Assembly (NCBI GenBank): GCA_964493305.1
Contig: CAZBLW010000002.1
Location: 76,677-140,676, forward strand
Origin: an uncultured Gammaproteobacteria bacterium
GTDB taxonomy: Bacteria; Patescibacteriota; Patescibacteriia; S139-126
Reading direction: 5' to 3'
DNA length: 64,000 nt
Below are positions 1,201 to 42,036 of this stretch, piece after piece. Numbering within the stretch: the stretch's first letter is position 1; each line of letters starts with the position of its first letter. The notes beneath the pieces were generated by a model, which was not told the DNA's origin, ran no database searches, and was given only the letters and a program-made list of their open reading frames with translations. The position numbers and the translations under genes are program-made.

Positions 1201-3354
1201 ATGAAAAAAATTAATATTATTTTACTTTTAGCTTTAATATTAGGTCTGACAGCACCTAATTTTTCTTTAGCTACAACCAGTACCCAAGCGGACTCTTTGA
1301 GTTCGCCTTATTTATTTGCTTTGGCTGGACAAAGTGATACTGAAGGTTCGGTAAATTTTGACATTTATGCTAGCTTCAACAGAGTCATTTCGGGTGCTTA
1401 TAGATCCGGTATTGGTTTGCAAAAAGCCATAATGACTTTTTATCCTTTCAATGGTAGCGAGGTAAAAGAGTGTACCTATGATCTATTGGCCAATACCAAT
1501 GATTGTAATTTACCGGATTATTTGACTACAGCGAGCGGACAGGTTAATAACCAAGCCGTAGTAAAAATAAATTTTGCCAGTAGTACCAATACTTTAGAGA
1601 AAGTTAAATTCCATCTATATTACGCAACCAGTACCAATCCAACGGGTTATACTTTCAACGTTGGTGATTCGATAAGTAATGACGGCTGGGGAGGTGATGC
1701 CAGTACACAAAGTAATGATGCGGAAATGCAAATTTATAACACCACTTTGGATGCTTATGGTAATGATCAAGCTAGTATTGATGGAGTAAATAGAAACATT
1801 GTTCACTTGTCCAATGTCATACATCAAGGTGCTTTTGTTGTTGTCACCGTAAAAAACAATTATCTTGGCTGGGAAATAGAAAATATTGGTTCCACAACTA
1901 CTGATATCCAAATTTCCAATCTTATGGCTTCAAATATAACTGCCAACGGAGCTAAATTTAGTTGGGATACCAACGTGCCAACAGCAATGGACTTTGGTTA
2001 TAAAAAATCCACTGACAGTCAATGGACATGGAGCGAAAATCAAATTCTAGAAACTCATCATGAAAAAACCTTTACCAACTTTGACCCCAATACAGCATAT
2101 AATTATCAAGTAAGAGTTAGAGATAATTTAGGTCAGTTAATCACTTCGTCGGAGATAAAAAGTTTTACTACTCTACCAGTTATAGCTGTAAACAAACCCG
2201 ATTTGATAATTGATAAAGTTACCTTACTGACGACTGGGGAAAGCAATAAATCAGACAATGCCAACCAAGACGTCAGTTTCAATGTTATTATAAAAAATAT
2301 TGGAGATACCACTACCACTAGTACTTTTTACGTATCAGGGGAAGTGCCTCCTTATACGAGCAATTCTTTTCAACATCGGCAGTCAAAGTCAGTTAGCGGT
2401 GTGCTATCAGCCAATGCTACAAAAGAAGTAGTAATAGGTCCTTTGCAATTACCACTGGGACAAATTGTAAAAGATCCAGCCAGATTTTATGTTGATAAGG
2501 ATTTATTAAATTCTGCCAACAATGATTTAGTCATAGAAAGCAGAGAAGATAATAATGCTTATGAATTTAATTTTTGTGAAGATGCCGATAGTCAATTTAA
2601 GTGTAAACCATCTATCTTTGTAACTGATGATGAAGCCACTAGTACCACTGATTCATCAGCTGAAGAAATCCAATCAGGAAATATAAAAGTTTTACGAGAT
2701 AAAATAAAAGAACAGGAAATGGAAATAAAATATTTAAAAAATATAAATAAAGATTTAAGTAAACTCAATGAATTGATGAAAGAAAAGTTGAGTCAATTCA
2801 TGGCTTACGGGGTAGATGATAATACTCAAAAATTGGGTGAGGGTGAGAGAGCGGCGGTATTGTATTCATACCAACAGGCATTTGGTAATTTGCCACAAAC
2901 TGATGCGGATTTAAATGATGTGGTAAGAATTGCCAATGGTCGTTGGCCCAGTATGAAGAATAAATCAGCAGAAGAAAAAGCCACTGCCAAGTTTAAAGAG
3001 ATTTACCAAAGAGATCCAAACTTAAACAATCCCAATGACAATGCAGCTGTTGTGATTATGGCTTATGGACTTCGTCAAAAAGCAGAAAATCGCAAGTTAA
3101 ATAGTGAGCAAAAAGGTCTCAAAATATTTGATGATTTATTTGGCAAAATACCTTCTTCAACTGAAGAGTGGAATACTTTACAAGCCATAACTTATTCGGG
3201 CGCAACTAGAGAAATTATAGATAGTGACAATGATGGTTTATCTGACAATATGGAAAAAAAATTTGGTACTGATCCCAATAACTCTGATACAGATGGTGAT
3301 GGTTATTTAGATGGACAGGAAGTGGTAAATAATTATAACCCTTTGAAAAAATAG
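1201..3354 (+). CDS. Secreted surface protein (717 aa) with CARDB/Fn3-like beta domains, a coiled-coil segment and C-terminal Ca-binding (thrombospondin-type-3-like) Asp repeats
   Basis: N-terminal signal peptide (MKKINIILLLALILGLTAPNFSLA). 'PDLIIDKVTLL...NVIIKNIGDTT' resembles a CARDB domain. C-terminal DSDNDGLSDNMEKKFGTDPNNSDTDGDGYLDGQE forms Asp-rich Ca-binding loops. Confidence 0.55.
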   Translation: MKKINIILLLALILGLTAPNFSLATTSTQADSLSSPYLFALAGQSDTEGSVNFDIYASFNRVISGAYRSGIGLQKAIMTFYPFNGSEVKECTYDLLANTNDCNLPDYLTTASGQVNNQAVVKINFASSTNTLEKVKFHLYYATSTNPTGYTFNVGDSISNDGWGGDASTQSNDAEMQIYNTTLDAYGNDQASIDGVNRNIVHLSNVIHQGAFVVVTVKNNYLGWEIENIGSTTTDIQISNLMASNITANGAKFSWDTNVPTAMDFGYKKSTDSQWTWSENQILETHHEKTFTNFDPNTAYNYQVRVRDNLGQLITSSEIKSFTTLPVIAVNKPDLIIDKVTLLTTGESNKSDNANQDVSFNVIIKNIGDTTTTSTFYVSGEVPPYTSNSFQHRQSKSVSGVLSANATKEVVIGPLQLPLGQIVKDPARFYVDKDLLNSANNDLVIESREDNNAYEFNFCEDADSQFKCKPSIFVTDDEATSTTDSSAEEIQSGNIKVLRDKIKEQEMEIKYLKNINKDLSKLNELMKEKLSQFMAYGVDDNTQKLGEGERAAVLYSYQQAFGNLPQTDADLNDVVRIANGRWPSMKNKSAEEKATAKFKEIYQRDPNLNNPNDNAAVVIMAYGLRQKAENRKLNSEQKGLKIFDDLFGKIPSSTEEWNTLQAITYSGATREIIDSDNDGLSDNMEKKFGTDPNNSDTDGDGYLDGQEVVNNYNPLKK

Positions 3355-3382
3355 CTCTTAATCAATTAGTAATCAGATTAAA

Positions 3383-3409
3383 AACCGCCCCATCTCGGAG
3401 CGGTTTTTC
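3383..3409 (+). terminator. Rho-independent terminator
   Basis: aaccgc...gcggtt stem followed by TTTTT, directly after the stop of the 1201 gene. Confidence 0.45.
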
Positions 3410-3536
3410 TTATGTCAAAATATGTAAAAATGGGGTGGCAATTCGTGGAATATGGCAAACTATTCTATATGGTATAAATCTTTACAAATTATCTATATTT
3501 AGCTAAACTTGTGGCGTCTTATTTTTAATAAAAATT

Positions 3537-4163
3537 ATGAAAAAACAAACCACAACCATTGTGTCGCTACTGGTACTGCTCCTGATTATTTTAGGAGGGT
3601 ATTGGATTTGGCAAGTCAATCAATCTAAACCAAATCAGGATCAAAATACACAACAGAATGTAGATCAAAATACTAATCAAACTCAAGAACCAGAGGTTAT
3701 TACTTCTGACATAGATACTTCTGATTGGTTGACATATAGAAATGAAGAATTAGGGTTTGAGTTTAGACATCCAGCCAATGTAACATTAGTCGAAGAAAGT
3801 GATGATCAAATATTTCAAAAAAAATTATTATTTAAATTTCCAGATAAAGAAGGGTATTTTTGGTTATCAGTAAAAGAAAATCCTCTACATTTAAATGCAG
3901 TCGAAATAAAAGATAAATTTTATAAAAATGATACTTACAGCTATCATTATGCAGAAAAATTTATTTCTATTGATGGTATAGAATCATATAAACAAGGACG
4001 TTATGATTTAGGGATTATAGAATATTATAGCATACCAACAAGTGATAAAATATTTGTATTTAATTTTGAATTTAATTTTGATAATAGTGATAAATCAATA
4101 TCTAAAAAGTACTCAGACTTAATTAATTTAATTATAAGTTCATTTTCTATAAAAAATAAATAA
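3537..4163 (+). CDS. Hypothetical membrane-anchored protein (208 aa)
   Basis: N-terminal TM anchor, then a Gln/Asn-rich linker and a soluble domain. No recognisable motif. Confidence 0.45.
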   Translation: MKKQTTTIVSLLVLLLIILGGYWIWQVNQSKPNQDQNTQQNVDQNTNQTQEPEVITSDIDTSDWLTYRNEELGFEFRHPANVTLVEESDDQIFQKKLLFKFPDKEGYFWLSVKENPLHLNAVEIKDKFYKNDTYSYHYAEKFISIDGIESYKQGRYDLGIIEYYSIPTSDKIFVFNFEFNFDNSDKSISKKYSDLINLIISSFSIKNK

Positions 4164-4255
4164 TAAAAATAAAATGTACTTTAAAAATTAAAAAAATGCA
4201 GTTGTAATATTGCATAAATAAATCAAAGTTATCACAAATAAAAAAGGAGTAAGAA

Positions 4256-7200
4256 ATGAAAAAGTTTCTTTTGTTTTCGTTTGGTTTGCTATTTCTGGTA
4301 TTTAACAGTTATTCACAAAGTCAGATGGATGGTTTTATATTACCAGCTGATGTAATGGAGAACGGTTGGCAATACTATTATAGTAGAAGTTTTTATTATG
4401 ATCAGAATCACTTGGGAGCTGATATTAATCTTGGTGAGGGAGTTCCTATCAAGGCGATAGCTACAGGTAAAATAGTTTTTTATGGTCCCGCATCAAGCTA
4501 TGGAGAATTGCTTGTAGCAATAGAGCATACTTTACCAGAAACAATTAATTTTTTGGATGCTAATGGTTCTATAAAAACAACAAACTCAATACTATCTATT
4601 TATGGTCATCTCCGTGCTAGTCAAATAAGGGGTGGTACACAACTTACTTGGAGTTACGGTCAGATTGTCCAGCAGGGAAGTATTATTGGTTATATTAATG
4701 ACGACGCACATAATGGTGATGGTGCCGAACATTTGCATTTAGGTATAAGATTATCTAACGAAGTTACGGCAAAAAGTGTAGATGGTTCAAAATGGCTTCG
4801 TGGTTATAAGATTAATGCTGATGGAACAAATTCAGGTATGCAAATATATTTTACAGATCCAATACCATGGATTTTAGGTCTAGCTCAATATCAATCTTCA
4901 CCATCCTGGCATTCTTATTCAAATAATCAACCATCTATTTCATTTGTCGATGCACATAATCGATATCCAAACAATATTATTGCCTATAATGTAAATAAAT
5001 TTATTGGTAATCCAAATGATAAGGGTGGTGGGAGATATGTGCACTATTGGTCATTTACTAATAATCCGATTAATAGTAATGGTGTCTGGGTTCAAGATTA
5101 TAAAAATACAAATGTAAATACCCGTTTTGGTATTGATGGCGAAACTGCGGTTATCCTAAATGAGCAAAATAAACAAGCTTATGTTGTTAAAGAAGGATTT
5201 TGGGGTTGGTATAAAAGACATGATGGGTATTATAATTTAGGTTCTCCTTTAACAGAAGAATATCAAGTAAATAGTAGTGGACATATGCGTCAAGATTTTA
5301 CTTTTGGGAAATTGTTATGGGCGCAACCTAGTACTGGAGGAGATTGGGAAATTATTCCTCTGTATAACAACATGTCTTACATGAATGAGTCTCGGATTAA
5401 TTTAGTATTTAACGAAGGTGGCGACAGACCTCTGCAGATAATTCCAAAGACAGTAAGAAACGAAGTTATTACCAAAGAAGGTGAACGTATTATTACTTAC
5501 TATCGCAACGGTGTACAGATACCTGCGCCACAGCCACAATCTTCAATCAGTGGCCAAGGTGGATATATTCCAGATAGCCCATTGTCAGGTGTAGAAATTT
5601 GGCATGGGAGTGAATATCTTGGAAATACCCCATTAGAAATCAATGGGTATGAAAGCTTTATTTACGAACTCACAGCTAAAGTGAATGGAGTGGATGTGCC
5701 TTTTTCTTTTGAAGCGCATGACGGCATGATAGTTGAAGTGCCAAGTAGCAATCCTTCAGGTGGTGGACTCGCAGTAGTGAATACTTTCACAATCACCCCA
5801 CCAAATCCAAATCCAGGTGGCGATAATGTAACGTTATCTGCAACACTTGGAAATACTTCTGGTAACTCAGCTTTTTATAACTATATTGAATTAGTAGTGT
5901 TGGATGCGAATTTTCAAAGCACTGGATTAAGAGAAGTAGCCTTTGATGTAACTATTCAAAATAGTAGTACCTATTCCATAAGCAGAACTTTTTCAATCAA
6001 TACTTCTGGAGAATATTATGCAGCAGTTCGTTACTCTATTGATAATCTGAACTGGAGTTATTTTGCTCCAGGAAGTGGGAACAATCCAGTATGGTTTCGC
6101 GTAGGTTCAGCACCAGCGCCAACAGGTGAATTAAAAGTAAGTTCATTTGTAGCTCAGAATGCGGATAACCTAGAACCAAACGAACCTCATTCGCTTGAAA
6201 TAACTCTTAATGAAACTTTAGGAGAACCAGTATTATATGATGTTAGTGTTGATCTTTTGGATGCACAGATGCAAATGGTTACCTATCAGCTTTCATATTG
6301 GGACAGCATAACAGTGAATGCAAATGGTAGTTGGGTGGGATTTGCGCCTAGTATTTCTATTGCGAATACTGGGCAATATTATTACCGAGTACGAGGATTT
6401 AACTATAGTACCAGTCAATGGTCTGTATTAAATACTACTGGTTCGGGAGTCAATCCTTTAGGAGTATCGGTAACAGAAGATAGTGTAGTACAAATACATC
6501 ACTGGGCATACATACCCGATACCTTAAAGGTGGATACTACTTTTACTGGATGGTGTAATTTAGAAATACCAGTTGGTAATGCAGTAGTGTATGACACTGT
6601 TGCATTTTGGATTTTAGATAGTCAGATGCAGAAAGTCGGAGAGGCAAACCAACGATTTACTAATGTAACATTTAATCCAAATGTAGGAGTCAATTTTCCT
6701 GTTGTGATGACCACTCCTTCAATTCCAGATCTATATTATGTCGAAGCAGTAGGTTATATGAGTGGTGGATGGAGCCAGTTTCAACCAATATGGAATTTAG
6801 CAAATCCGAAACCATTATTTGTATATTCTGAAGTAATCAGTGGCACTGTAGTCTTAGATCAATTCTCAGTTTTACAAACCCCTATTATTTGGTGTGATAG
6901 TCTCAGGGTAGTTGTACAATTGAAAGAGACAAATGGTTATCCATTGTATTTGGATTCAATAAAAGTTGCGTTGAAAAGTAATACAGGTACTTTTATACGG
7001 TATTGTGAATACAAATGGACGAATGTATTTATTGAGGCTAATGAAACATTTGACTTAGGTACATTTCGTGAATTGATTTACGATCCCATGGGTACTTTGA
7101 TGAGTAAAACATATCAATTGGAAATCTTTTATAGCAGCGGAAGTGGTAGTTTAGTACATATGGGAACAAGTTCAGGAATAAATAATCCTATTACCTTTGA

Positions 7201-8704
7201 AGTAGTTGTACCTTCTGCTATTCAATCAAAAATTATCGCCAGTGACCCTTATCCTAGCGATCAATTTGGTTGGTCAGTAGATATTGATGGTGATTATTGT
7301 GTCGTTGGTTCAGCTAAAGATGATGATAAAGGCGCTGATGCGGGTTCAGCATATGTATATCATTTGGTAAATAACGTGTGGACTCAGATAGCTAAAATTA
7401 CTGCCAGTGATGGAGCTGCTGGTGATTGGTTTGGCTCAGCAGTTGCGATAGATGGCAATTATATATTGGTTGGATCGCAATTTGATGATGATAGAGGTAC
7501 AAGTACAGGTGCAGCCTATCTATATTATATAAATAAGACTACTCAAGAAGTATTCCAAACCAACAAAATATGTCCATCATATCTATCAGGTGGCATGTTA
7601 TTTGGTGCCGCAGTGGATATATCTGGAGATAAAATAGTTATTGGTACTCCGTATTTTTATAACGGAGGTGCTGCTTATTTATTCTATCGCGAAGATGAAA
7701 GTGTTCGTAGTTATCAAAGAATCAATGAGTATAATGGCACAAATGGAGATATGTATGGGTATTCAGTTGCTATCAATGGCGATTATGTGGTAGTTGGAGC
7801 AAATTCAGATGCTAATACAGTATCTCGTGGTGGTGCTGCATATGTCTATTATTATAATCTTAATGATCTTTATGTAACTGAGTTAGGGAAAATAGTACCT
7901 AATGATGTAGCTATTGATGATTTTTTTGGGTATGATGTTGCAGTTGAATATCCTTATGTAGTGTCCTCAAGTCGTGGCGATGATGATAAAGGTTCAAATT
8001 CTGGTTCATTTTATGTATATAAATCTGATTCATCTGGGTTTTCCCAATTTGCAAAACTCACGGCATTTGATGGAGCTGCAAATGATCAATTTGGACATAG
8101 AGTAGATATTTGTTCTGAATATATTGTCAGTTCTGCATATTTTGATGTAGCTGGTTATTATCGTTCTGGTTCAGCTTACCTGTTCAGGGTTGTTGATGAT
8201 ACCGTATTCTATATGCGGAAAATTATACCTAGTGATGGTAGGAATAATGATAATTTTGGTTATTCTTTGGCAATAGATCAAGGTAGAATAATTGCCGGAT
8301 CATATTATGATGATCATAGTAATTTTGTTGATCCAGGTTCTGCATATATTTATACAGGATTTACTTCTGTTCCATTGGCTAAACAATCCATATTTGAACA
8401 GGAATTAGGTGAGTTTCAAATCCCAGAGCAGTACACATTAGAATCAAACTATCCAAATCCATTTAACCCGTCAACGACTATAAAGTATAGTCTGCCAACT
8501 ACAGAACAGGTATCACTGAAAGTATATAATATACTCGGTCAGGAAGTAATTACTTTAGTTGATGAACTGCAGGATGCTGGATATAAACAGATTGTGTGGA
8601 ATGGTAGAGATTCCTACGGTAGTCAAGTTGCTAGCGGTGTCTATATTTACCGTCTGCAAACAGATAAATTCGTACAAAGTAAAAAGATGATATTACTTAA
8701 ATAA
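4256..8704 (+). CDS. Large secreted multidomain protein (1482 aa): N-terminal M23-type metallopeptidase domain, about seven FG-GAP (integrin-alpha-like) repeats, and a C-terminal T9SS-type sorting domain (Por_Secre_tail-like)
   Basis: Strong Shine-Dalgarno (aaaaggagtaagaa) and a signal peptide. M23 motifs HLGAD...HLHLG. Repeats such as DQFGWSVDIDGDYCVVGS...GSAYVY occur about seven times. The C-terminus NYPNPFNPSTTIKYSLP...VSLKVYNILGQEV...WNGRD..G..VASGVYIYRLQ...KKMILLK fits the T9SS C-terminal-domain consensus. Confidence 0.7.
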   Translation: MKKFLLFSFGLLFLVFNSYSQSQMDGFILPADVMENGWQYYYSRSFYYDQNHLGADINLGEGVPIKAIATGKIVFYGPASSYGELLVAIEHTLPETINFLDANGSIKTTNSILSIYGHLRASQIRGGTQLTWSYGQIVQQGSIIGYINDDAHNGDGAEHLHLGIRLSNEVTAKSVDGSKWLRGYKINADGTNSGMQIYFTDPIPWILGLAQYQSSPSWHSYSNNQPSISFVDAHNRYPNNIIAYNVNKFIGNPNDKGGGRYVHYWSFTNNPINSNGVWVQDYKNTNVNTRFGIDGETAVILNEQNKQAYVVKEGFWGWYKRHDGYYNLGSPLTEEYQVNSSGHMRQDFTFGKLLWAQPSTGGDWEIIPLYNNMSYMNESRINLVFNEGGDRPLQIIPKTVRNEVITKEGERIITYYRNGVQIPAPQPQSSISGQGGYIPDSPLSGVEIWHGSEYLGNTPLEINGYESFIYELTAKVNGVDVPFSFEAHDGMIVEVPSSNPSGGGLAVVNTFTITPPNPNPGGDNVTLSATLGNTSGNSAFYNYIELVVLDANFQSTGLREVAFDVTIQNSSTYSISRTFSINTSGEYYAAVRYSIDNLNWSYFAPGSGNNPVWFRVGSAPAPTGELKVSSFVAQNADNLEPNEPHSLEITLNETLGEPVLYDVSVDLLDAQMQMVTYQLSYWDSITVNANGSWVGFAPSISIANTGQYYYRVRGFNYSTSQWSVLNTTGSGVNPLGVSVTEDSVVQIHHWAYIPDTLKVDTTFTGWCNLEIPVGNAVVYDTVAFWILDSQMQKVGEANQRFTNVTFNPNVGVNFPVVMTTPSIPDLYYVEAVGYMSGGWSQFQPIWNLANPKPLFVYSEVISGTVVLDQFSVLQTPIIWCDSLRVVVQLKETNGYPLYLDSIKVALKSNTGTFIRYCEYKWTNVFIEANETFDLGTFRELIYDPMGTLMSKTYQLEIFYSSGSGSLVHMGTSSGINNPITFEVVVPSAIQSKIIASDPYPSDQFGWSVDIDGDYCVVGSAKDDDKGADAGSAYVYHLVNNVWTQIAKITASDGAAGDWFGSAVAIDGNYILVGSQFDDDRGTSTGAAYLYYINKTTQEVFQTNKICPSYLSGGMLFGAAVDISGDKIVIGTPYFYNGGAAYLFYREDESVRSYQRINEYNGTNGDMYGYSVAINGDYVVVGANSDANTVSRGGAAYVYYYNLNDLYVTELGKIVPNDVAIDDFFGYDVAVEYPYVVSSSRGDDDKGSNSGSFYVYKSDSSGFSQFAKLTAFDGAANDQFGHRVDICSEYIVSSAYFDVAGYYRSGSAYLFRVVDDTVFYMRKIIPSDGRNNDNFGYSLAIDQGRIIAGSYYDDHSNFVDPGSAYIYTGFTSVPLAKQSIFEQELGEFQIPEQYTLESNYPNPFNPSTTIKYSLPTTEQVSLKVYNILGQEVITLVDELQDAGYKQIVWNGRDSYGSQVASGVYIYRLQTDKFVQSKKMILLK

Positions 8705-8797: not shown

Positions 8798-8872
8798 TGG
8801 GGTGGCTAGAGGGAGTTGAACCCTCGCCAGCGGGACCACAACCCGCTGTTCTACCGTTAAACTATAGCCACC
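8798..8872 (-). tRNA. tRNA-His (anticodon GTG)
   Basis: The reverse complement folds as a cloverleaf: GGTGGCTATAGTTTAACGGTAGAAC...TTGTGGT anticodon loop...GAGGGTTCAACTCCCTCTAGCCACCCCA. It has G-1, discriminator C73, an encoded CCA and a GUG anticodon. Confidence 0.8.
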
Positions 8873-10007: not shown

Positions 10008-10082
10008 TGGTACCCCCGAGAGGAATCGAACCTCTATATCCAGCTTAGAAGGCTGGTGTTCTATCCGTTGAACTACAGGGGC
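10008..10082 (-). tRNA. tRNA-Arg (anticodon TCT)
   Basis: Reverse complement GCCCCTGTAGTTCAACGGATAGAACACCAGCCTTCTAAGCTGGATATAGAGGTTCGATTCCTCTCGGGGGTACCA. Anticodon loop CTTCTAA, T-loop TTCGATT, CCA encoded. Confidence 0.75.
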
Positions 10083-10182
10083 AGGTTATTATAATTATTA
10101 TTTTTTTAAAGCTTAGTCCCGCCACCAGGGCGGGATGCTCAATTTTGTATCTCCTCGCTTTGACTCGGAGACAAAATTGGCA

Positions 10183-10216
10183 AAGGCTGGTGTTCTATCC
10201 GTTGAACTACAGGGGC
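10183..10216 (-). repeat. Exact 34-nt duplicate of the 5' half (nt 1-34) of tRNA-Arg(TCT)
   Basis: aaggctggtgttctatccgttgaactacaggggc is identical to 10049-10082. The copy ends inside the anticodon loop. Confidence 0.8.
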
Positions 10217-10221
10217 TAAAC

Positions 10222-10342
10222 CTTATAAAAATATCTAAAAAATTGAGAAAGGTCAAGATAAATAATTATAAATTTTCAATTATAAATTATAAATGGACTA
10301 ATCTTGTGTTTATAATTTACAATTTATAATTTAAAATTAATT
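10222..10342. repeat. AT-rich direct and inverted repeats 'ataaattataaat' adjacent to the recombinase gene (possible arm-type sites)
   Basis: aattataaattttcaattataaattataaatgg and tttataatttacaatttataattt are reiterated between the tRNA fragment and the recombinase stop. Confidence 0.4.
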
Positions 10343-11317
10343 TTACTTTTTCTTATGGTGAAAATTTTTGTGAATTTCTTTGAGTTGACGATTGGTAATG
10401 TGCGTATAAATTTGGGTAGTGGTGATGGAAGCATGTCCGAGCATAGCTTGGACCGATCTGATATCAGCCCCGTTTTGCAAAAGGTCCGTGGCAAAAGAAT
10501 GACGCATAGTGTGAGGAGTGACCTTTTTGGTGATGCCGGCAGCTTTACTATAAAACTTAATCAATCTTTCTACGCTTCTTGGTGTCAGGGCGTGAACCAC
10601 TTTATCATCCTTTTTCAATCTTTTTGTTTTGGCTCGATCATGTCCGACAAAAAGTGATGGATCCAGATCTTGTCTTTTTTCCAAATAAGCTCGCAAGGTT
10701 GTTTTAGCTTTGTCAGACAAAAATACTAAACGATTTTTTCCACCCTTACCCGTGACTGTAAATTCATCTTTTTTTAAATTGACCTGTTCTCTGGTCAAAG
10801 AGGTCAATTCAGAGACACGTAAACCAGTAGAAAAAAGCATTTCCAAAATCGCTTGATCGCGTAATTTAATAATCTCTCTTTGGGTTGTGGTATGAGGGGA
10901 GTTTAGTAATCTTTCCAAGTCATCATTTTCCAAAAAATCTACTTCTCTTTCTGGTTGTTTAGCCAATTCTATCTTTTCTGCCGCCAAAGTTTTGACATCT
11001 TGCTTGGCTAGATATTTTAAAAATGAACGCAAGGCAATAAGGTGATAATTTTGGGTAGATTTTTTCAAAGCTTTGCCCCGTTGGTCGGTTTGTCGGTTTA
11101 GCCAGAGACGAAATTGTTTTATTTTCGGCAAGGAAATATCAGTTGGTTTAAGATTTTTTTTATTCAACCAAGAAAAAAATCTTAGTAAGTAAAAACTATA
11201 GTTTCGTACTGTGCGCAACGACCTACCTTTTTCAATTTCCAAGTAATTCAAAAAATCATTGGCCCAGCGACCCAAAGAACCAAAATTGTCCAATTTTTTA
11301 CTGGTGTTATCTGACAT
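10343..11317 (-). CDS. Tyrosine recombinase (XerC/XerD/phage-integrase family)
   Basis: 324 aa. N-terminal SAM-like core-binding region. C-terminal HTMRHSFATDLLQNGADIRSVQAMLGHASITTTQIYTHI carries the R..H.R.Y catalytic signature. Confidence 0.8.
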   Translation of the reverse strand: MSDNTSKKLDNFGSLGRWANDFLNYLEIEKGRSLRTVRNYSFYLLRFFSWLNKKNLKPTDISLPKIKQFRLWLNRQTDQRGKALKKSTQNYHLIALRSFLKYLAKQDVKTLAAEKIELAKQPEREVDFLENDDLERLLNSPHTTTQREIIKLRDQAILEMLFSTGLRVSELTSLTREQVNLKKDEFTVTGKGGKNRLVFLSDKAKTTLRAYLEKRQDLDPSLFVGHDRAKTKRLKKDDKVVHALTPRSVERLIKFYSKAAGITKKVTPHTMRHSFATDLLQNGADIRSVQAMLGHASITTTQIYTHITNRQLKEIHKNFHHKKK

Positions 11318-25115: not shown

Positions 25116-25889
25116 GTGGATAGAGCCAAAGAGTCGATTTTTGAAAAATTAAAAAAATATTTTGCAGTCCCTAAAAATCAAGGGAAGTTTTTTATTGTTT
25201 TTGGACTGATTGCTTTGATTTTTGGTGGTTGGCGGATAGTCAATACTATTCGCAGCCCATTTGTCATTGATCAAAATCAATTATTGGCCCAACAGCAAGT
25301 TCAGGATTCAGTGGAAAATCAAATTAAAGATTTAGCTGCATTGAGGGCCAAAGATACTGACAATGATGGTTTGTCTGATTATGATGAAATTTATATTTAC
25401 GGTACTTCGGCTTATTTGGAAGATACTGACTCAGATGGTTATGCTGATAAATTGGAAATTGAAACTGGCAATAACCCCACTTGTCCAGCTGGACAAAAGT
25501 GTTTAGTAGATAGCGCGGTTACGGCAACCTCCAGTGGTCAATCTATTAGTCCGACCAATTCCTTAGTGGATCCATATAATATTACGGCTGCTGAAATTAG
25601 ACAACTGTTACTTGCTAGCGGTTTGGATCAAGCCACTTTGGATGAGATAGATGACAATTCTCTACGCCAAATGTTTTTACAGGCCTATTTGGAAACAGAG
25701 AATCAAGTCGGTGCAGTTGGTGGTCAAAATGCCACCACTCCAGCTGAAAATTCAGATGTTATCATATCTTCCCCAGCTCAATTGCGCGAAATATTAATTG
25801 CCAATGGTGTGCCCGCTGAACAGGTCAATGCAGTTAGCGATCAAGAATTGATGGATTTGTATGAGGAAATTAGAGCCGAGGGTAATTAA
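25116..25889 (+). CDS. Membrane-anchored protein with Ca-binding Asp-repeat (thrombospondin-type-3-like) motifs (257 aa)
   Basis: N-terminal TM helix. DTDNDGLSDYDEIYIYGTSAYLEDTDSDGYADKLE repeats. First gene of the long + strand surface/T4SS-like block. Confidence 0.45.
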   Translation: MDRAKESIFEKLKKYFAVPKNQGKFFIVFGLIALIFGGWRIVNTIRSPFVIDQNQLLAQQQVQDSVENQIKDLAALRAKDTDNDGLSDYDEIYIYGTSAYLEDTDSDGYADKLEIETGNNPTCPAGQKCLVDSAVTATSSGQSISPTNSLVDPYNITAAEIRQLLLASGLDQATLDEIDDNSLRQMFLQAYLETENQVGAVGGQNATTPAENSDVIISSPAQLREILIANGVPAEQVNAVSDQELMDLYEEIRAEGN

Positions 25890-25906
25890 ATAAAATAAAT
25901 AAATAT

Positions 25907-28900
25907 ATGCCAAAAAATAAGCTAGCTAAACATCAGAAAAAATTTAAAGTCAGATCTTTGTTTTTAGTAATTAGCTTATTTTTTGTTTTGGCTGGATTTA
26001 GTTTACCGATTAAAAATATTTTTGCTATTGGTATTCCAGCACCAACTCCAACTATAGAGTTGGTTAGTAAACCACAAATTGAAGTATCAATCGGTGAGAA
26101 AATTTGGTTTTTTGTAGAGCGGGCGGCTAAGATAGTTTATAAAAATGCTTTGGATTATTTTTTGCAAAGAATGGCCTATGATACTGCTACTTGGTTAGCC
26201 ACTGGTGACAAAGGACAAAAACCGCTTTATTGGGAAGAAGGTATTGGTGCTTATATCAGAGGCATTGGCGATGAAGCCATTGGCAAGGGTTTAGATGAAC
26301 TTGCTCAAGGTACCTTTGGGGTGAGTTTGTGCGAACCATACAATGCCAATATAAAATTGCAGTTGATTTTACAAACCAAACAAGCTTTTGAACCGCAACG
26401 CGCCACTTGTACTTTCAATGATATTTTAAAAACCAAATTGTTGAATGTGAGTGTCAATGGCCAAAAGCCTGATTTGCGTTTATTGGATAGAGAAAACTTT
26501 CATCTTTTAGCTCAATATTTTAATCCCAACTCCAATGAATTGGGAGCGCAATTTATTTTGTATTCCAATATCAGTACCAAAAGAGCTGAGGATGAAAAAA
26601 TGGCTACTTTGATAAGATCAATTGAAGCTGATGTCAAAAGTTTAAAATCACCCATTGGTGATTTGGGATTTGAAGGTATTAAGACACCAGCACTTGATAT
26701 TAAAAATTGGTTGGGAGCAACAGCCGAAAAATCAGTTGATTCTGGTTGGACCACACTGACTGGTGATATTGCTGCTGATGCTTTGCGTACTTTTACCAAT
26801 ACTTTGGCCTCGAAATTCTTGCAACGTTTACAAAAGGGAGTGTTGTCAGGGAAAGGCGGTGCTACTGGTGGCGGACCGCGTGATTTTGCCAGTTCTTATG
26901 CAACCAGGGGAGCTGATACGAGTTACGCTGAATTTATTATTCCTTCTTTCCGGGGTGGGGGTAGTATTGACGTTTTGGGTAAACTGTCATCATGTCCACC
27001 AGAAAATCAAGCCCGGTTGTTTGATAATTGTATTATTGATAGCCGATTAGCCACCGCTATCGATCAAGGTTTGACTGTAAGACAAGCCATGGAACAGGGT
27101 TATTTGGATGCCAATAAACCTTTTGGTTTTTTGGCTGATGGTAGTGAACCTTCTTATACCAATGGTTACCCTTATCGCAGTTTGGTATTTATGAGAAAAT
27201 ACAGAATTATACCAGTGACTTGGGAATTAGCAGCTCTGTATATCAAAGACATAAACACTACCAATGATACTTTTACTCTAGCGCAAATCATGGGTACTCC
27301 GGGAGATAATTTTCAAGCTTTTAGTTCCTCGACTTCACCATTTTATCATTTGATTGATCCCAATTGGGTACTGAAATTACCAGAATACGAGTGTCGAATT
27401 GAAGGGCCAGGCCCGCAAGTAACACAAAGAATCAATGTCCAAGCTGAAGTGGCCGATGGTTTTGGTGGGACCATCACTGTCAATGAAGAATCTCTACAAA
27501 GATCTGATTATTGCGCTGACGAACAAACTTGTATTGCGCAAAACCCCAATGGTACTTGTCAAAAGTACGGTTATTGTACTAAAGAAAGAAGCACTTGGAA
27601 TTTTCAAGGACAAGCCTGTTCCCCGCAGTTTGCAACTTGTGAAACTTATGCCAATAGCAAAGGTGATAAGTCTTCTTATTTAGCTGCCACTTTGGAAACT
27701 TGTGATGCCTCACAGGTTGGTTGTCGTTGGTACAGTATGTACAAAACTCCGAGCGACTTTTGGGCCGATGATATTTGGAATCAAGTTGCCAATACTTTTG
27801 GAAGTGATAACCAAATTACTTTTGGTGATGTTTACAACCGGACAGATTTGGGTGATATAAGTTATGCCAGATATTTCAACAATCAAATTAAAACTTGTAC
27901 GGCCAAGGATGAAGGTTGTAATAAATTTATCGAACTAACCAATATCTCAGCACCGGATGGTTATGAAGCTACTACCCAATCAATTTTTCAATATGTCCAA
28001 AATAACCAAGGTGTTTATGCGGAAGCTGGTATTTTAAATTCGTATGGCGAGTGGGGTTTGGTACAAGAAAAAAATATGAAAGCTGCCCCCAGTTATCTCA
28101 ACTGCCCAACGGACATCAATGATCCCAATCGAGACTCTCGGTGTGACAATTACGCGCAAAGTTGTACCGCGGCTGAGGTTGGTTGTAGTTTATATACACC
28201 CATTAATGGTGATCCGCCCGTGCCAGCGGTATTGGGTAACAATGATTATTGTAGTGCATCTTGTGTTGGTTATGATCAATATTTGGAAGTACCAACTTAT
28301 TTTGAAAGGCGGGCTAACCCCGTAGCATCTCCAGTTATTGAAAATATTATCCCTGCTTCAGCTACCAGTTGTCGTTTGAGTGATGTGGGCTGTGAACAAT
28401 TTACCAATTTAGATGAAGTTGCTCAAGGCGGTGAAGGCATTCGCTATTTCAGTTTTATCAGAGAATGTATTTTGCCCAACGATCCGGCAGCCAAAGTTTT
28501 CTATACTTGGGAAGGTAGTGATACCTCTGGTTATCAGTTGAAGACTTGGCGCTTGCAATCTGCCGGTGGTGGAGCTCCCACGGGTGATAGTTGCGATCCG
28601 GCTGATGACCCACTAAATTGTCGGACTTTTATTGACGCCGAAGGTACCAGTTGGTCCAGAGATATTATGACCGTTACTTATGCCACTGATGATTGTCATC
28701 CGCTGAGACGAACAGTTGATTCCAGTGTTATTTATGGTATCGAGTCATTTAGTCGGTCCTGTCGGGCTGAAGCGGTGGGCTGTAAAGAATATCGGGGAAA
28801 TCAAGGCAATGTAGTGACCATTGTGGTAAATGATGATTTTGAATCAGGTACGAGTGAAGGTTGGATCAACGGCTTCAACTCCAGTGAATCGGTTTATGTG

Positions 28901-31900
28901 GGCGGACATTCTATGCAAGTTGTTGGTACTAGAACTCTAAAACAAGTAAACAACCTTATCACTAAAGATAAAAATTATACTATTTCTTTTTGGGCAAGAA
29001 GTTCAGGAGCCTCTGCCAATTTATCATTTGAAATTCAAGCCTATCAGAATAATAGCATTACAAAGACAGAGAATAAGATTTGGTCATTTATAGATGCAGC
29101 TCAAGCACAAGTTATTCAGTTTATAGATCTAGTACCTGTTGCTGGTTCGCAACGAAGTTTTGGTAGTGTCAGTTTGACTGATGAATGGCAGTATTACCGA
29201 TTGGGACCAGTAAATTTTGATCGGGCGGTTAATACTTATGAGTTTTTACAAACCAATGCCACCAATGTGTATCTCGACAATATCATTATGCGGGAAGTCA
29301 CTGATAGTTATTATTTGATTGCTGATTCTTGGGAAACGCCAGCTATTTGTAATCAGCCTTTTGTCGGTGCGCAACTGGGTTGTCAGGCTTATCGTGACAC
29401 AAGAGGCAATGAAATTGATTTACTTGGTTTCACCGCTTTGTGTAGTGATTCTAAGGTTGGTTGTAAAGCGATGATTGATACCAAAAATTCCAACTCACCC
29501 TTTAGCCAGAATTTCAATACCGGCAACAATGCTTTTTCTGATCCGCAGGGGCTTGATGATGTGACAGTACCAGCTGATAATATAGTTTATTTGGTTGATG
29601 ATCAGGATAAATATTGTTCCAGTCAGTTTGCTGGTTGTACCTTAGCTGGTGAAGCTATTTTGGACCGTCAATCAGATGGCACGGTAGTTGCTTTCAACGA
29701 TAAGTTTATTATTGATAGTCCGGAAAATTACAATACCACTATGTGTGGTGTGGGTGGACTTTATTGTGAACAATATACTAGCGAACGCACTGGCGCCACC
29801 ACTTACTTAATCAACCCCGGCAATCGTACTTGCGAATATAAATTGTTACCCGGTAGAACTTCAGCCAATTGGTACCAAAGCGGTACAGAAACTCTTTGTG
29901 AACAATTACAAGATTATCCCATACAACCAATTGCAGCCACTGATCCCAATTATGATGGTTGGGTAGGTATGTGCTCATCGGAAGCCATGGGTTGTAGTCA
30001 ATATGTTGATCCTGAAGGTGATCCGGATATTACCAAGAGTTCTTATTTCTACTTAGAACAATCAGTCAACACCGCTGCTTGTAATGGCTTGGTTGATCGG
30101 GAGCGCGGTTGTCGGTTATTCAACAAACTTGACGGCACACCGCAAGCCTTTACCGCCAACGCCTATACCCCAGCTACGCCCGATGGTAGTGTACCTCTAA
30201 GCAGTCCCAATGCCGCGGAAAATAGTGCCAATATAATTTTACAAGTACAAAAAGATCGAGCTTGTGATGAGTGGTTGTATTGTAAGACAAGGATAGAATC
30301 TTATGATACTGAGGGCAACCGCGATGATAAATGTTTTGATATCGGAATTTGCGATGGCTTAAATGATAGCGGTGAGTGTAATAGTTTCCCAGTACTTCCT
30401 AATACAGAAATTGTTGGTCAGCAAATTAGTGGAGCTACTGGTTATACTAATCCCTATACTGTAGAAGATTTACGACTTATGAGTGGTTATACCAAAGCGG
30501 GTATGAGTTGGTCAGGTTTTGCCAGTGGCAATGGTACTACTCCTGGTTATTTACCATATAACTTAATGACTCAAGTCGGCAATGAAGCTAATATTTTATA
30601 CAACCCAAGTTTTGAAGAAACTATTACTACCAATCAGCCCCTGCAATCACCATTTCCTTATTGGGATACTGCTGGTTCAAATTGTAATACCAATAGTACT
30701 TGTCGAGTAATGCCTGACAGTCAATCAATATCAGGTATAAGAGCAGCAAAAATTTCAATTAATCCCAATAATGCTAGTGCAGGTAATAGTAATGTTTTCT
30801 TGAATCAACCATTGTCATTGTCACCTTCGGAATATATTTTGTCAGGTTTAATTAGGTGGGAAAATATTACCACTGGGAATAATAGCGCTGGTGCTAATAT
30901 TAGAATTTTGCAAGGTAGTAACACATTAGCTGAATTTGGACCAAGACAAGATTATAGTACGGGAGGTTGGCAGTCATTTTCTATTAAGTTTAGCAATACA
31001 GCCAATAACGTGACTATCAGGGCCGAACTATTAAATATCAGAGAAGGATCTGTATTTGTTGACGGTTTGACTATCCTACCAGCTTTGCAGGTAATGAATG
31101 CGCCAGAAACATTAGTTAGTCAGCGTTGCCGTTTGTATCCGGAAAGTTCATCGCCTGAATGTAATTATGTAAAAGGCACAAAATCATATGTTGGTTGGCC
31201 AGGTTTTTGTGCCGAAGTAGACCCGAGAAACCCCAGCTATTGTGTGAATTGGTGGCCGATTGATATTATCAAAGGTTCAGTAGCTCAAATCAACGAGCGA
31301 CCTTTGGTGTTTGGAGAAAAAGTACCTCTTTATTTTTGCGAAGTTTCGTCTGGTAATGAAAGCTCTAATCCAAATTGGGGTTTTTATGCACACAATGATT
31401 ATAAACTAAATGCTGTCAGAGGTGCTTTTGTACCTTTTTATCCATCATATGTAGGACAAAGACCTTTTATATTTGAAAATAATAGTTGCGCAAATTGGTC
31501 CGGTATACAGAATGGGGTACAATTCACCATTGGTGGTTGTTCAAGGGGTGATGGTACTAGATATATGTTTGGCGATATAAACAATACACCTGAAAATAAA
31601 TATTTTGAATATGATATAGAAAAAATAATTTTGAGGAAAACTTCAACTCGCGGCGAGTATCCTGACCGTGTAACTCTGACTAATGCACATAGATTAACTA
31701 AAGCTCAGGTAGCAGCTACTATAGATACTGCTATGGCTAACGGTATGGCTGATAATGAGTTTGCCTGGGTAGCTGATTGTGGTTATAGAGATTCACAAGA
31801 AGATAAACCAGTTCCCAATTCTTGTAGTGGTTCTGATGATTATTTAAAGTTCGGAGTAATTTTTACAAATCAAGGTCAACCACGTGCATACTTTATTTTT

Positions 31901-32977
31901 ATGGATGATTATAGTGGTTCTGGTAGTGATGCAGCTGGTTACGCAGTAGATTATTATTTACGTGAATCGTGTACTGTTTTAGCTAAAGTGGGACAAGTTG
32001 AGCCAAATGGTGATATAAATACTTATCCTTATTGGACGAGAGTTGATCAATTTAGCGGTTACAATGTAACACCCCTTGATTATAATTATATAAAGGACAG
32101 TGTGCCTTTTGGCTCAGTTTACCAAAGTGGCTTATCTCGTTATTTCCAGGATGGTTCAAATCAGTTGCAAAATGAAAACAGTCCTTCTACTTGGGACTCA
32201 CGACCAACAGAACCAGGTAATCAGCCAATTTATGTAGAAGCTGAAAATACTTTGACTATAAATGATGGATCATTAAATCCCGGACCAAATATCAGAGCTG
32301 GTACACCTTATGCTTGTTACAATGGTAGTTGTGTTGGATCTGTTTGTGTGGGTGGATCTAGAGAGGGTACTTTATGTATTGATGATGAAACTGCTAAGAG
32401 TTGTTATATGGGCGATGGTTTGAATACTGGTATTTGTGTTGGTTCTTGGCAAACACCAAATCCAATGCCCAATACTGATACAGTATCGGCTAGAAATAGT
32501 TTGAGTCAATTGTTTATCAGGTCACTTGCTGAGTATCGATGGCAATTTGAAAATGGCGCTTGGCGTTATGTGGAAGTGGTTGGAGGGGGATGGAATAATA
32601 TTGGCGCCAGTGTGTTACCACAGATTGGAAATATTTTAATAAATAATACTTCCTCGACAGTCAGTTTGCCAGATGGTGGTACAGTCAAACTTAGTTTCAC
32701 TACCAATATCGCCAATGACCAACTGCCTTTGCGGAGTTACAACATCAATTGGGGCGATGGTTCAGCCAATACTACAGTTCAAGGTTATTTCAATGAACGA
32801 CCTAGTGCAGGTGATCCTCATATTTTGTATCATTCATATACTGGCACCACTAATCCATCGGTTAATTATAATATTACTATCCAAGTGATGGATAATTGGG
32901 GATATGGTGCTACGCCACAAAGATATGGTCAAGGTGTCTTCAATAACGCAGTTTGTGTTGGCGCCAGCTGTCCGTAA
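25907..32977 (+). CDS. Giant secreted Cys-rich surface protein (2356 aa) with reiterated 'GC(K/S/E)xY/F' modules and a C-terminal PKD-like domain
   Basis: N-terminal signal/TM segment. More than 70 cysteines in periodic motifs (GCRWYS, GCNKFI, GCSLYT, GCEQFT, GCKEYR, GCQAYR, GCKAMI, GCTLAG, GCSQYV, GCRLFN). C-terminal ...YNINWGDGSANTTVQGYF...HSYTGTTNPSVNYNITIQVMDNWG resembles PKD. Confidence 0.6.
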   Translation: MPKNKLAKHQKKFKVRSLFLVISLFFVLAGFSLPIKNIFAIGIPAPTPTIELVSKPQIEVSIGEKIWFFVERAAKIVYKNALDYFLQRMAYDTATWLATGDKGQKPLYWEEGIGAYIRGIGDEAIGKGLDELAQGTFGVSLCEPYNANIKLQLILQTKQAFEPQRATCTFNDILKTKLLNVSVNGQKPDLRLLDRENFHLLAQYFNPNSNELGAQFILYSNISTKRAEDEKMATLIRSIEADVKSLKSPIGDLGFEGIKTPALDIKNWLGATAEKSVDSGWTTLTGDIAADALRTFTNTLASKFLQRLQKGVLSGKGGATGGGPRDFASSYATRGADTSYAEFIIPSFRGGGSIDVLGKLSSCPPENQARLFDNCIIDSRLATAIDQGLTVRQAMEQGYLDANKPFGFLADGSEPSYTNGYPYRSLVFMRKYRIIPVTWELAALYIKDINTTNDTFTLAQIMGTPGDNFQAFSSSTSPFYHLIDPNWVLKLPEYECRIEGPGPQVTQRINVQAEVADGFGGTITVNEESLQRSDYCADEQTCIAQNPNGTCQKYGYCTKERSTWNFQGQACSPQFATCETYANSKGDKSSYLAATLETCDASQVGCRWYSMYKTPSDFWADDIWNQVANTFGSDNQITFGDVYNRTDLGDISYARYFNNQIKTCTAKDEGCNKFIELTNISAPDGYEATTQSIFQYVQNNQGVYAEAGILNSYGEWGLVQEKNMKAAPSYLNCPTDINDPNRDSRCDNYAQSCTAAEVGCSLYTPINGDPPVPAVLGNNDYCSASCVGYDQYLEVPTYFERRANPVASPVIENIIPASATSCRLSDVGCEQFTNLDEVAQGGEGIRYFSFIRECILPNDPAAKVFYTWEGSDTSGYQLKTWRLQSAGGGAPTGDSCDPADDPLNCRTFIDAEGTSWSRDIMTVTYATDDCHPLRRTVDSSVIYGIESFSRSCRAEAVGCKEYRGNQGNVVTIVVNDDFESGTSEGWINGFNSSESVYVGGHSMQVVGTRTLKQVNNLITKDKNYTISFWARSSGASANLSFEIQAYQNNSITKTENKIWSFIDAAQAQVIQFIDLVPVAGSQRSFGSVSLTDEWQYYRLGPVNFDRAVNTYEFLQTNATNVYLDNIIMREVTDSYYLIADSWETPAICNQPFVGAQLGCQAYRDTRGNEIDLLGFTALCSDSKVGCKAMIDTKNSNSPFSQNFNTGNNAFSDPQGLDDVTVPADNIVYLVDDQDKYCSSQFAGCTLAGEAILDRQSDGTVVAFNDKFIIDSPENYNTTMCGVGGLYCEQYTSERTGATTYLINPGNRTCEYKLLPGRTSANWYQSGTETLCEQLQDYPIQPIAATDPNYDGWVGMCSSEAMGCSQYVDPEGDPDITKSSYFYLEQSVNTAACNGLVDRERGCRLFNKLDGTPQAFTANAYTPATPDGSVPLSSPNAAENSANIILQVQKDRACDEWLYCKTRIESYDTEGNRDDKCFDIGICDGLNDSGECNSFPVLPNTEIVGQQISGATGYTNPYTVEDLRLMSGYTKAGMSWSGFASGNGTTPGYLPYNLMTQVGNEANILYNPSFEETITTNQPLQSPFPYWDTAGSNCNTNSTCRVMPDSQSISGIRAAKISINPNNASAGNSNVFLNQPLSLSPSEYILSGLIRWENITTGNNSAGANIRILQGSNTLAEFGPRQDYSTGGWQSFSIKFSNTANNVTIRAELLNIREGSVFVDGLTILPALQVMNAPETLVSQRCRLYPESSSPECNYVKGTKSYVGWPGFCAEVDPRNPSYCVNWWPIDIIKGSVAQINERPLVFGEKVPLYFCEVSSGNESSNPNWGFYAHNDYKLNAVRGAFVPFYPSYVGQRPFIFENNSCANWSGIQNGVQFTIGGCSRGDGTRYMFGDINNTPENKYFEYDIEKIILRKTSTRGEYPDRVTLTNAHRLTKAQVAATIDTAMANGMADNEFAWVADCGYRDSQEDKPVPNSCSGSDDYLKFGVIFTNQGQPRAYFIFMDDYSGSGSDAAGYAVDYYLRESCTVLAKVGQVEPNGDINTYPYWTRVDQFSGYNVTPLDYNYIKDSVPFGSVYQSGLSRYFQDGSNQLQNENSPSTWDSRPTEPGNQPIYVEAENTLTINDGSLNPGPNIRAGTPYACYNGSCVGSVCVGGSREGTLCIDDETAKSCYMGDGLNTGICVGSWQTPNPMPNTDTVSARNSLSQLFIRSLAEYRWQFENGAWRYVEVVGGGWNNIGASVLPQIGNILINNTSSTVSLPDGGTVKLSFTTNIANDQLPLRSYNINWGDGSANTTVQGYFNERPSAGDPHILYHSYTGTTNPSVNYNITIQVMDNWGYGATPQRYGQGVFNNAVCVGASCP

Positions 32978-38538: not shown

Positions 38539-38901
38539 ATGGTAGAATCATATAAAGAATTGATAGTTTGGCAAAAAGGAATGGATTTAGTAGTTGCCAC
38601 ATATAAATTAATTGGTAAATTTCCTAAAGAAGAAATATTTGGATTGTCGATGCAGATGAAAAGGTCAGCAGTTTCAATCTCATCCAATATAGCTGAAGGC
38701 AGAAATAGAGGTACTAGAAAAGATTTTATTTATTTTTTAAGAATAGCATACGGATCTGGAGCTGAGTTGGAAACACAAATCGAGTTATCAAAAAGATTAT
38801 TTAATATAACATCAGAGAGTTATGCTGAAGTAGACGAGTTATTAATAGAAGTGATGAAAATGCTTAATAAAATGATAGCTAAGCTACAAGCTAATAACTA
38901 A
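38539..38901 (+). CDS. Four-helix-bundle protein ('23S rRNA intervening-sequence protein' family)
   Basis: MVESYKELIVWQKGMDLVVATYKLIGKFPKEE...SSNIAEG...FLRIAYGSGAELETQIELSKRL is characteristic of this family. The gene is embedded between inverted REP-like arms. Confidence 0.7.
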   Translation: MVESYKELIVWQKGMDLVVATYKLIGKFPKEEIFGLSMQMKRSAVSISSNIAEGRNRGTRKDFIYFLRIAYGSGAELETQIELSKRLFNITSESYAEVDELLIEVMKMLNKMIAKLQANN

Positions 38902-38917
38902 AAGCTATAAGCTAATT
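38881..38917. repeat. REP-like repeat, right-arm type (AAGCTACAAGCTAA...AAGCTATAAGCTAAT)
   Basis: Reverse complement of the left-arm motif. It ends ...taattacc immediately before the PrgI-like ATG. Confidence 0.55.
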
Positions 38918-38920
38918 ACC

Positions 38921-39364: not shown

Positions 39365-39365
39365 A

Positions 39366-40043: not shown

Positions 40044-40049
40044 TAAAGT

Positions 40050-40126
40050 TTTTAGTTGTTAGCTTTTAGCTTTTAGATAAATACAATTAAGAAGTCATAA
40101 GCTAAAAGCCAAAAGCTATAAGCTAA
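40050..40126. repeat. REP-like palindromic element (left arm ttagttgttagcttttagcttttag; right arm ctaaaagccaaaagctataagctaat)
   Basis: A long hairpin lying exactly between the two VirB4 pieces. It ends ccctaattacc before the ATG, the same junction as at 38921. Confidence 0.6.
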
Positions 40127-40138
40127 TCCCTAATTACC

Positions 40139-42031: not shown

Positions 42032-42036
42032 TAAAT

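Follow-up and report, generated by a model that had tools for sequence, protein, structure and literature searches.

Type A C-terminal domains (CTDs) of type IX secretion systems (T9SS) are held to be confined to the Bacteroidota and the wider Fibrobacterota-Chlorobiota-Bacteroidota (FCB) group, where their occurrence tracks that of the T9SS core machinery (PMC10202324, PMC11205867), and no report of such a domain in the Candidate Phyla Radiation (CPR, or Patescibacteria) was found in the literature. Described here is a gene at positions 4256 to 8704 of a 64,000-nucleotide stretch of DNA (‘the window’: positions 76,677 to 140,676 of contig CAZBLW010000002.1, assembly GCA_964493305.1) that encodes a T9SS-class type A CTD at the end of a large protein from a Patescibacteria lineage. 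The favored explanation, to which a probability of roughly 0.6 is assigned, is that a monoderm CPR lineage has taken over a CTD derived from the FCB group and domesticated it as a working C-terminal module, one that does without the canonical outer-membrane machinery.

The closest described proteins are small T9SS cargo proteins of Candidatus Marinimicrobia, KSB1 and Calditrichota, which consist of about 500 residues of FG-GAP propeller and Por_Secre_tail domain and display the same propeller-linker-CTD layout, and the same CTD motifs, as the window protein. In contrast to these, the window cassette sits behind a CPR-type M23 peptidase and repeat region of about 980 residues, and its host is a monoderm Patescibacteria bacterium with no T9SS seen in the window. 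The modeled window CTD is an immunoglobulin (Ig)-like beta-sandwich, as are those of Porphyromonas gingivalis PorU, PorZ and RgpB (with its best match to PorU, 6za2, and another to PorZ, 5m11), and it shares with them its position at the extreme C-terminus and its terminal lysines; however, sequence identity is only about 20%, and there is no evidence on the window side of PorV, PorU or anionic lipopolysaccharide (A-LPS). Comparable fold matches are found to the Ig-like domain of FlgD (PF13860) and to Ig/Fn3-like C-terminal domains of ScpA and Vpr; the occurrence of a comparable fold in Gram-positive surface proteases indicates that it can work in monoderm envelopes. What sets the window domain apart from FlgD is a combination of motifs (NYPNPFNP...GxY...KKMxLLK) and a TIGR04183 score that belong to the T9SS type A class. 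At the other end of the protein, the M23 module has the HxxxD, H and HxH residues of the M23 (LytM/lysostaphin-type) endopeptidases, from which it differs by an insertion of about 25 residues, a conserved extension of about 200 residues and a PsbP-like partner gene.

A type A C-terminal domain on a mosaic protein

The gene, its parts and the flanking features on which the argument relies are as follows.

4256..8704, plus strand: open reading frame (ORF) of 1482 codons, with signal peptide (predicted), M23 module, beta-rich repeats, FG-GAP propeller and type A CTD
4256..5341, plus strand: N-terminal module (residues 1 to ~362), with hydrophobic predicted signal peptide MKKFLLFSFGLLFLVFNSYSQ, M23 domain and conserved extension
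5696..7210, plus strand: beta-rich region (residues ~481-985), about four repeats of ~115-125 residues as counted by eye from the sequence; presumed Ig-like stalk
7211..8359, plus strand: seven-bladed FG-GAP (integrin-alpha-like) beta-propeller (residues ~986-1368), from FG-GAP_2 matches and the structural model
8360..8443, plus strand: flexible linker (residues 1369-1396) ending LE|SN, with low model confidence
8444..8701, plus strand: type A T9SS-class CTD (residues 1397-1482), from TIGR04183 and PF18962
8716..8741, plus strand: intrinsic terminator hairpin 3' of the gene, kept with the CTD at two related loci (L067 and L059) with compensatory stem changes
8798..8871, minus strand: tRNA-His, a synteny anchor common to L067
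8908..9901, minus strand: PDGLE and CbiM transporter genes, assigned with Pfam; synteny anchors and rate comparators for the CTD
3537..4163, plus strand: protein of ~200 residues that has an N-terminal transmembrane segment and resembles PsbP_2 weakly; conserved partner lying upstream of the M23-module gene
3377..3439, plus strand: conserved intergenic element, a terminator-like hairpin AAAAACCGCCCCATCTCGGAGCGGTTTTT and ~35 nt; left edge of the variable cargo region

An earlier, sequence-only reading of this DNA had placed, at exactly these coordinates, an M23-peptidase and FG-GAP beta-propeller protein ending in a Por secretion CTD, and profile searches bear out both parts of that description. 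Pfam matches Peptidase_M23 at residues 51-168 (41.1 bits; gathering threshold (GA) 28.7), with every zinc and catalytic residue present (HxxxD, H52/D56; H118; HxH, H159/H161), and FG-GAP_2 in seven stretches (285 bits). No Pfam family matches the beta-rich region at residues ~481-985. The final domain scores 42.4 bits against NCBIfam TIGR04183, the T9SS type A sorting domain (cut-off 23, E 5e-11), and 30.3 bits against Pfam Por_Secre_tail (PF18962, residues 1399-1479, GA 27), a value that is tied by FlgD_ig, also at 30.3 bits. A hidden Markov model (HMM) built from the CTDs of other proteins alone matches the last 85 residues with an E value of 1e-34, and matches no other ORF in the window.

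Type A CTDs are marked by a glycine and an aromatic residue in motif D and by motif E lysines within the last 13 residues (PMC10202324). Across 29 aligned CTDs (A6), the P, N, P, G, G and Y positions do not vary, and F, N, K87 and K92 hardly do; the window domain, which runs up to the stop codon and thus forms the extreme C-terminus of the protein, has all of these motif residues (NYPNPFNP...GVYIYRL...KKMILLK). A search of PDB sequences with the CTD returned weak matches only (FlgD, E 0.03; PorU, E 0.43). An AlphaFold2 (AF2) model of the C-terminal part of the protein (mean predicted local distance difference test (pLDDT) score 87.9) consists of seven four-stranded blades (scores of about 90), a disordered linker (pLDDT below 50 at residues 396-409 of the fragment) and a beta-sandwich. 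Because the propeller dominated the PDB matches of that model in Foldseek (the top matches are integrin alpha headpieces, with PorZ at rank 41), the CTD was modeled alone. The resulting model (pLDDT 93.4) has six long beta-strands and short bridges, in agreement with the Ig-like seven-strand sandwich expected of a type A CTD, and among PDB entries it matches the P. gingivalis PorU CTD best (6za2, TMq 0.72), ahead of PorZ, FlgD and streptococcal ScpA. The ORF therefore carries a genuine type A T9SS-class CTD.

Cleavage by PorU follows the pattern T/E/D/N|G/A/S (PMC10202324), to which the LE|SN at residues 1396/1397 of the window protein conforms; the corresponding sequences at the two related loci (LYYN in L059, LQQN in L067) contain no such site. 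Elsewhere, several proteins of 1250-2460 residues (P0320-P0328) hold 9-15 tandem CTD- or FlgD_ig-like domains, which shows that this fold serves as an internal repeat too.

The two ends of the protein have different relatives. Its N-terminal ~360 residues are 47-49% identical to proteins such as P0007 (47% over 362 residues), which carries the NCBI label Patescibacteria and is encoded among the genes for L25, RF-1, L31, S2 and EF-Ts. An alignment-based scan of GTDB species representatives identified 54 loci of this M23-module family, many of them titled Patescibacteria, Uhrbacteria or Parcubacteria, and H52, D56, H118, H159 and H161 are invariant across the family (alignment A2). Most of its Patescibacteria members are 450-780 residues long and have C-termini of other types; the CTD is found at just two of the 54 loci, which are the two closest to the window (L005 and L006, both titled Patescibacteria). 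By these sequence relationships the M23 module is native to Patescibacteria, and the protein was hence not gained in one piece.

The last 503 residues, on the other hand, can be aligned across 98% of their length, with an identity of 38-42%, to a large family of ~500-residue stand-alone FG-GAP_2 and Por_Secre_tail proteins, whose named members are T9SS type A proteins from Ca. Marinimicrobia, KSB1 and Calditrichota. This part of the protein is thus the full-length equivalent of a small FCB cargo protein, from which it follows that a cassette was acquired horizontally and fused to the native module. The ORF is a mosaic of a native CPR enzyme and an FCB-type cargo cassette; the proposal in the sequence-only reading that the cargo protein was horizontally acquired accordingly holds for the C-terminal cassette and fails for the N-terminal M23 module. 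GC and GC3 are uniform along the ORF and typical of the genome, so the fusion is not recent, and a composition test for recent transfer (GC and GC3 along the gene) gave no signal. The identical gene, with the same neighbors, is present on two independent Logan assemblies, and hence is not an assembly chimera.

The upstream ORF at 3537..4163 shares 30-34% identity with the ORFs that immediately precede P0007 and P0010, and a PsbP-like ORF directly precedes the M23-module gene in the window and at three other loci: L003 (6457-9858, with up to three tandem copies), L004 (9100-9741) and L007 (9106-9714). The Pfam match to PsbP_2 is weak for the window copy and reaches 27.3 bits for that of L003. 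This ~200-residue gene was considered as a partner linked to the CTD and rejected, because it also precedes the CTD-less family member in L007; it is a partner of the M23 module rather than of the CTD, and could be an inhibitor, an immunity factor or a cofactor of the peptidase.

Conservation of the domain on different cargo

A metagenome scan for DNA encoding the peptide VDELQDAGYK led to a 483-residue protein (L063) that joins a cohesin domain to the same CTD. The gene is found unchanged in assembly GCA_964540695.1 (protein P0286, locus L067) and in three Logan runs, adjoins a type IV pilus operon, and lies beside genes whose products are identical to the NCBI Patescibacteria entries MDE1975004.1 and MDE1975006.1. 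P0286 and the window gene have the same CTD and the same terminator, and occupy the same locus relative to tRNA-His, PDGLE and CbiM; they differ in that the L067 cargo is a cohesin domain, and in that four extra genes lie between the L067 gene and tRNA-His. An 82-residue ORF upstream of the L067 gene was also considered as a partner, and was rejected as a fragment of a VWA gene.

The two CTDs are 85% identical in amino acid sequence, and the block formed by CTD, stop codon and terminator hairpin is 79-80% identical at the nucleotide level, with values of 78.6% and 80.1% from two comparisons and with compensatory changes in the stem. The shared tRNA-His, PDGLE and CbiM stretch is 76% identical in nucleotides (69% and 70% in amino acids for PDGLE and CbiM, respectively). 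Between these conserved flanks the cargo is unrelated: an M23 and propeller protein in the window, a cohesin protein in L067. On the left, the 63-nt element at 3377-3439 is 89-90% identical to positions 9480-9540 of L067, the analogous site upstream of the gene for the cohesin-CTD protein; the window has a single copy of the element, and the proteins of the two genomes differ by about 30%. This element may be a regulatory site or the recombination boundary of a ‘cargo-swapping’ locus.

The closest relative of the cassette is P0167, encoded on L059 (6983-9072), with a CTD that is 92% identical to that of the window and propeller blades that are 26-68% identical. In L059 the propeller ORF is truncated at its 5' end and overlaps a DUF4238 gene at the 3' end of the latter. 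No named cluster members were found for L059, and the one hint at its taxon is a mobile-element gene 55% identical to one in a Patescibacteria metagenome-assembled genome (MAG). CPR status was counted for the window and L067 copies, and the L059 copy was not assigned to a taxon. A sister-strain contig from the same sample (L061 1-60) ends exactly at the DUF4238 overlap point, which marks the site as one that varies, or has been rearranged, from strain to strain.

Of 1.84 billion representatives, the CTD finds matches in 304,429 at E<=1e-3, and the L059 and L067 copies are the only two that exceed 66% identity; the three domains thus form a tight clade. The last 13 residues (YIYRLQTDKFVQ[ST]KKMILLK) are the same in all three CPR-linked copies except at one position, which is S or T. 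Rates of change, as Nei-Gojobori estimates of non-synonymous (dN) and synonymous (dS) divergence and their ratio (omega), are listed below.

CTD, window versus L059: dN 0.047-0.052, dS 0.79-0.82, omega 0.06
CTD, window versus L067: dN 0.083, dS saturated, omega ~0.04
PDGLE, window versus L067: dN 0.20, dS 0.65, omega 0.31
CbiM (partial), window versus L067: dN 0.21, dS saturated, omega ~0.07
Linker, window versus L059: dN 0.42, dS saturated, no omega
Propeller blades 1-2, window versus L059: dN 0.27, dS 1.49, omega 0.18

In the CTD, synonymous change exceeds non-synonymous change significantly (Fisher’s test, p = 4e-14), and the flanking PDGLE and CbiM genes have more than twice its dN. No other part of the protein is conserved as well as the CTD, which has outlasted its cargo and is under strong purifying selection in Patescibacteria.

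Two further contigs (L064 2-4623 and L062 1-1308) bear two tandem CTD-carrying ORFs, one of them an SBBP-propeller protein, directly upstream of a HVGHPEGYTATD-type LeuS gene. The N-terminal LeuS fragment encoded there is 66-70% identical to Patescibacteria LeuS, and matches Mycoplasma mobile LeuS with 208 bits and an identity of roughly 60% (judged by eye). These ORFs may be further CPR examples, and were left out of the CPR count.

The cluster of surface proteins encoded at 1201-8704 may form a variable island. A XerC/D-type tyrosine recombinase gene (10343-11317, minus strand) adjoins tRNA-Arg(TCT) in the region 10008-11317, and tRNA-His lies directly after the CTD gene.

Host lineage and secretion genes of the window

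The window encodes S15, PNPase, LeuS, RecG, RadA, ComM, LspA, KsgA and Sua5. Among the best 120 homologues of its LeuS, all those with a named lineage are Patescibacteria (56-61% identity, with unnamed matches reaching 76%), under the names Patescibacteria group, Parcubacteria, Kuenen-, Uhr-, Falkow-, Magasanik-, Kerfeld-, Komeili- and Sungbacteria, and a few are labeled merely ‘bacterium’ or metagenome. The host is placed in the CPR/Patescibacteria because all named top LeuS matches belong there, a placement made by similarity search of a single marker. Many ‘binchicken’ MAG records in GTDB bear the title ‘uncultured Gammaproteobacteria’ (L007, L014, L023, L025, L027, L028, L033-L035 and others) and yet carry the Patescibacteria-type M23 family, with S15, NYN and PNPase 50-58% identical to those of the window; such titles look unreliable.

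The secretion genes present are those of a monoderm, conjugation-type type IV secretion system (T4SS), consisting of PrgI, a VirB4/TraG-like ATPase and T4SS pilin-like proteins, in agreement with an earlier account of Patescibacteria (bioRxiv 10.1101/2025.01.22.634366), which the literature gives as a monoderm phylum (PMC11665869). No T9SS family of Pfam or NCBIfam was matched among the ORFs of the window, nor was any found in the Pfam tables of related CPR loci. On all three of these points (a CPR-like genome, PrgI/VirB4-type secretion genes and no T9SS machinery within the window) the sequence-only reading proved accurate.

The T4SS cluster extends over 38539-48485, with PrgI at 38921-39364, an ORF resembling the N-terminal part of VirB4 at 39366-40043 and a TraG/VirB4 P-loop ORF at 40139-42031; the latter two may be one split VirB4. 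It also contains two large T4SS_pilin-like proteins (43264-44673 and 47127-48485), a DsbA-like thioredoxin (46424-47152) and, within it, two 23S-rRNA-intervening-sequence (S23p) proteins (38539-38901 and 46024-46362). The region 25116-32977, probably more CPR surface machinery, contains a giant ORF of 2356 residues with CBM_4_9 as its sole match; a TSP3-repeat protein precedes it, and the three ORFs after it (924, 450 and 391 residues) have no family match. Finally, 59147-62986 encodes a DUF4365 protein, a LexA-like repressor (60452-61084) and an Eco57I/TaqI-type restriction-modification methylase (61109-62986); LexA and LeuS are also found near M23-family genes in several Patescibacteria loci (L009, L026 and L050).

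A proposed domesticated module and its rivals

If the CTD has been domesticated in this lineage, as favored here, the multidomain protein would be exported by Sec to the extracellular space or cell surface of the Patescibacteria bacterium. A native M23 zinc endopeptidase module, with its PsbP-like, membrane-anchored partner, would have been joined by an FCB propeller-plus-CTD cassette that was gained horizontally and fused behind it, after which the CTD would have been kept in Patescibacteria, together with its terminator, as a portable 3' module on varying cargo. Because the phylum is monoderm and no T9SS genes were seen, the CTD is most likely not an outer-membrane translocation signal here; it would more likely serve as a conserved recognition or retention domain, for instance one holding the enzyme on the cell surface or docking it to a conserved partner. 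The cargo, with its intact M23 active site (which would presumably cleave peptidoglycan), its repeats and its integrin-like propeller, would suit attack on, and adhesion to, a host surface by an epibiont.

Several points weigh against that explanation. No candidate for a CTD partner or processing enzyme was identified. FlgD_ig scores equal to Por_Secre_tail, and the fold also occurs in Gram-positive surface proteases, so that the fold alone carries no implication of T9SS biology. The estimate of selection comes from three sequences of 86 codons with dS partly saturated, and the strong conservation could be purely structural (for folding and stability) rather than a matter of partner recognition. 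The term ‘monoderm’ reflects literature on the phylum, not evidence from the host organism itself; the absence of T9SS core genes covers 64 kb plus about 100 kb of related loci rather than a whole genome; and the taxon labels of MAGs are the submitters’ own. A more specific and less probable version is that the CTD is a portable, T9SS-free tag in monoderm Patescibacteria that would be read by a surface-anchoring or processing system of the CPR itself, or would dock onto the PorV/PorU complex of an FCB host, at a locus that swaps cargo in front of a fixed CTD-terminator module.

The sequence-only reading had suggested a signal that is now orphaned, that is, a relic that arrived with a horizontally gained FCB gene, has no function in a CPR cell and has merely not yet decayed. 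The FCB-like nature of the cassette, the lack of T9SS genes in the window, the presence of the CTD in only two of 54 GTDB family members and the 5' truncation of the L059 copy would all be in keeping with such a history. However, an omega of 0.04-0.06 at diverged synonymous sites, a CTD dN (0.08 between window and L067) less than half that of the neighboring transporter genes, the same CTD and terminator on unrelated cargo at a syntenic locus and a fully ameliorated composition contradict a decaying remnant, and this explanation is judged unlikely. Slightly less likely again is that the CTD is directed at a host, with the domain of a Sec-exported enzyme docking to the surface T9SS shuttle and attachment complex (PorV, PorU, PorZ) of an FCB bacterium and thereby tethering, or even covalently attaching, the peptidase and adhesin to the host surface. 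It would account for the conservation of T9SS-critical motifs, including the last 13 residues, for the PorU-type E|S site before the window CTD and for cargo types suited to host interaction (M23 peptidase, integrin-like propeller, cohesin), and Patescibacteria are host-dependent epibionts with many surface proteins (PMC11665869). Yet it is pure inference, neither L059 nor L067 keeps the PorU-type site, and in the current model CTDs are passed to PorV from inside the translocon and not from outside the cell (PMC10202324).

That the protein is ordinary cargo of a T9SS, or of a derived version of one, encoded beyond the window is what would be predicted from the strict co-occurrence of CTD proteins with T9SS core genes (PMC10202324), and at least four Patescibacteria genomes carry such CTDs. 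Against this stand the description of the phylum as monoderm (PMC11665869), the lack of any T9SS family match in the 64-kb window or in the Pfam tables of related loci, and the small size of CPR genomes, of which the 348-kb contig is already a large share; the monoderm phylum and its small genomes make a T9SS outside the window very improbable. Metagenome-derived sequence can be chimeric, and an FCB gene might in principle have been placed on a CPR contig by mis-assembly or mis-binning; but the recovery of this gene with its flanks from two independent Logan assemblies, the core CPR genes on the same contig, a CPR-type module making up the N-terminal third of the protein, CTDs on other, independent Patescibacteria MAG contigs and a homogeneous GC3 effectively refute such an artefact.

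Domestication of an FCB-derived CTD in a monoderm lineage, if true, would mean that a match to this domain is no longer proof of a T9SS in genome annotation, and would imply a T9SS-independent function for a very abundant domain (represented by the 304,429 matches noted above). It would also offer a concrete handle on the surface biology and host attachment of the CPR, both of which are largely obscure. The locus presents a clear case of a domain gained across phyla and then domesticated by a lineage with a streamlined genome. In a phylum that the literature calls monoderm, a T9SS-class CTD is conserved more tightly than neighboring housekeeping genes and is reused on different cargo.

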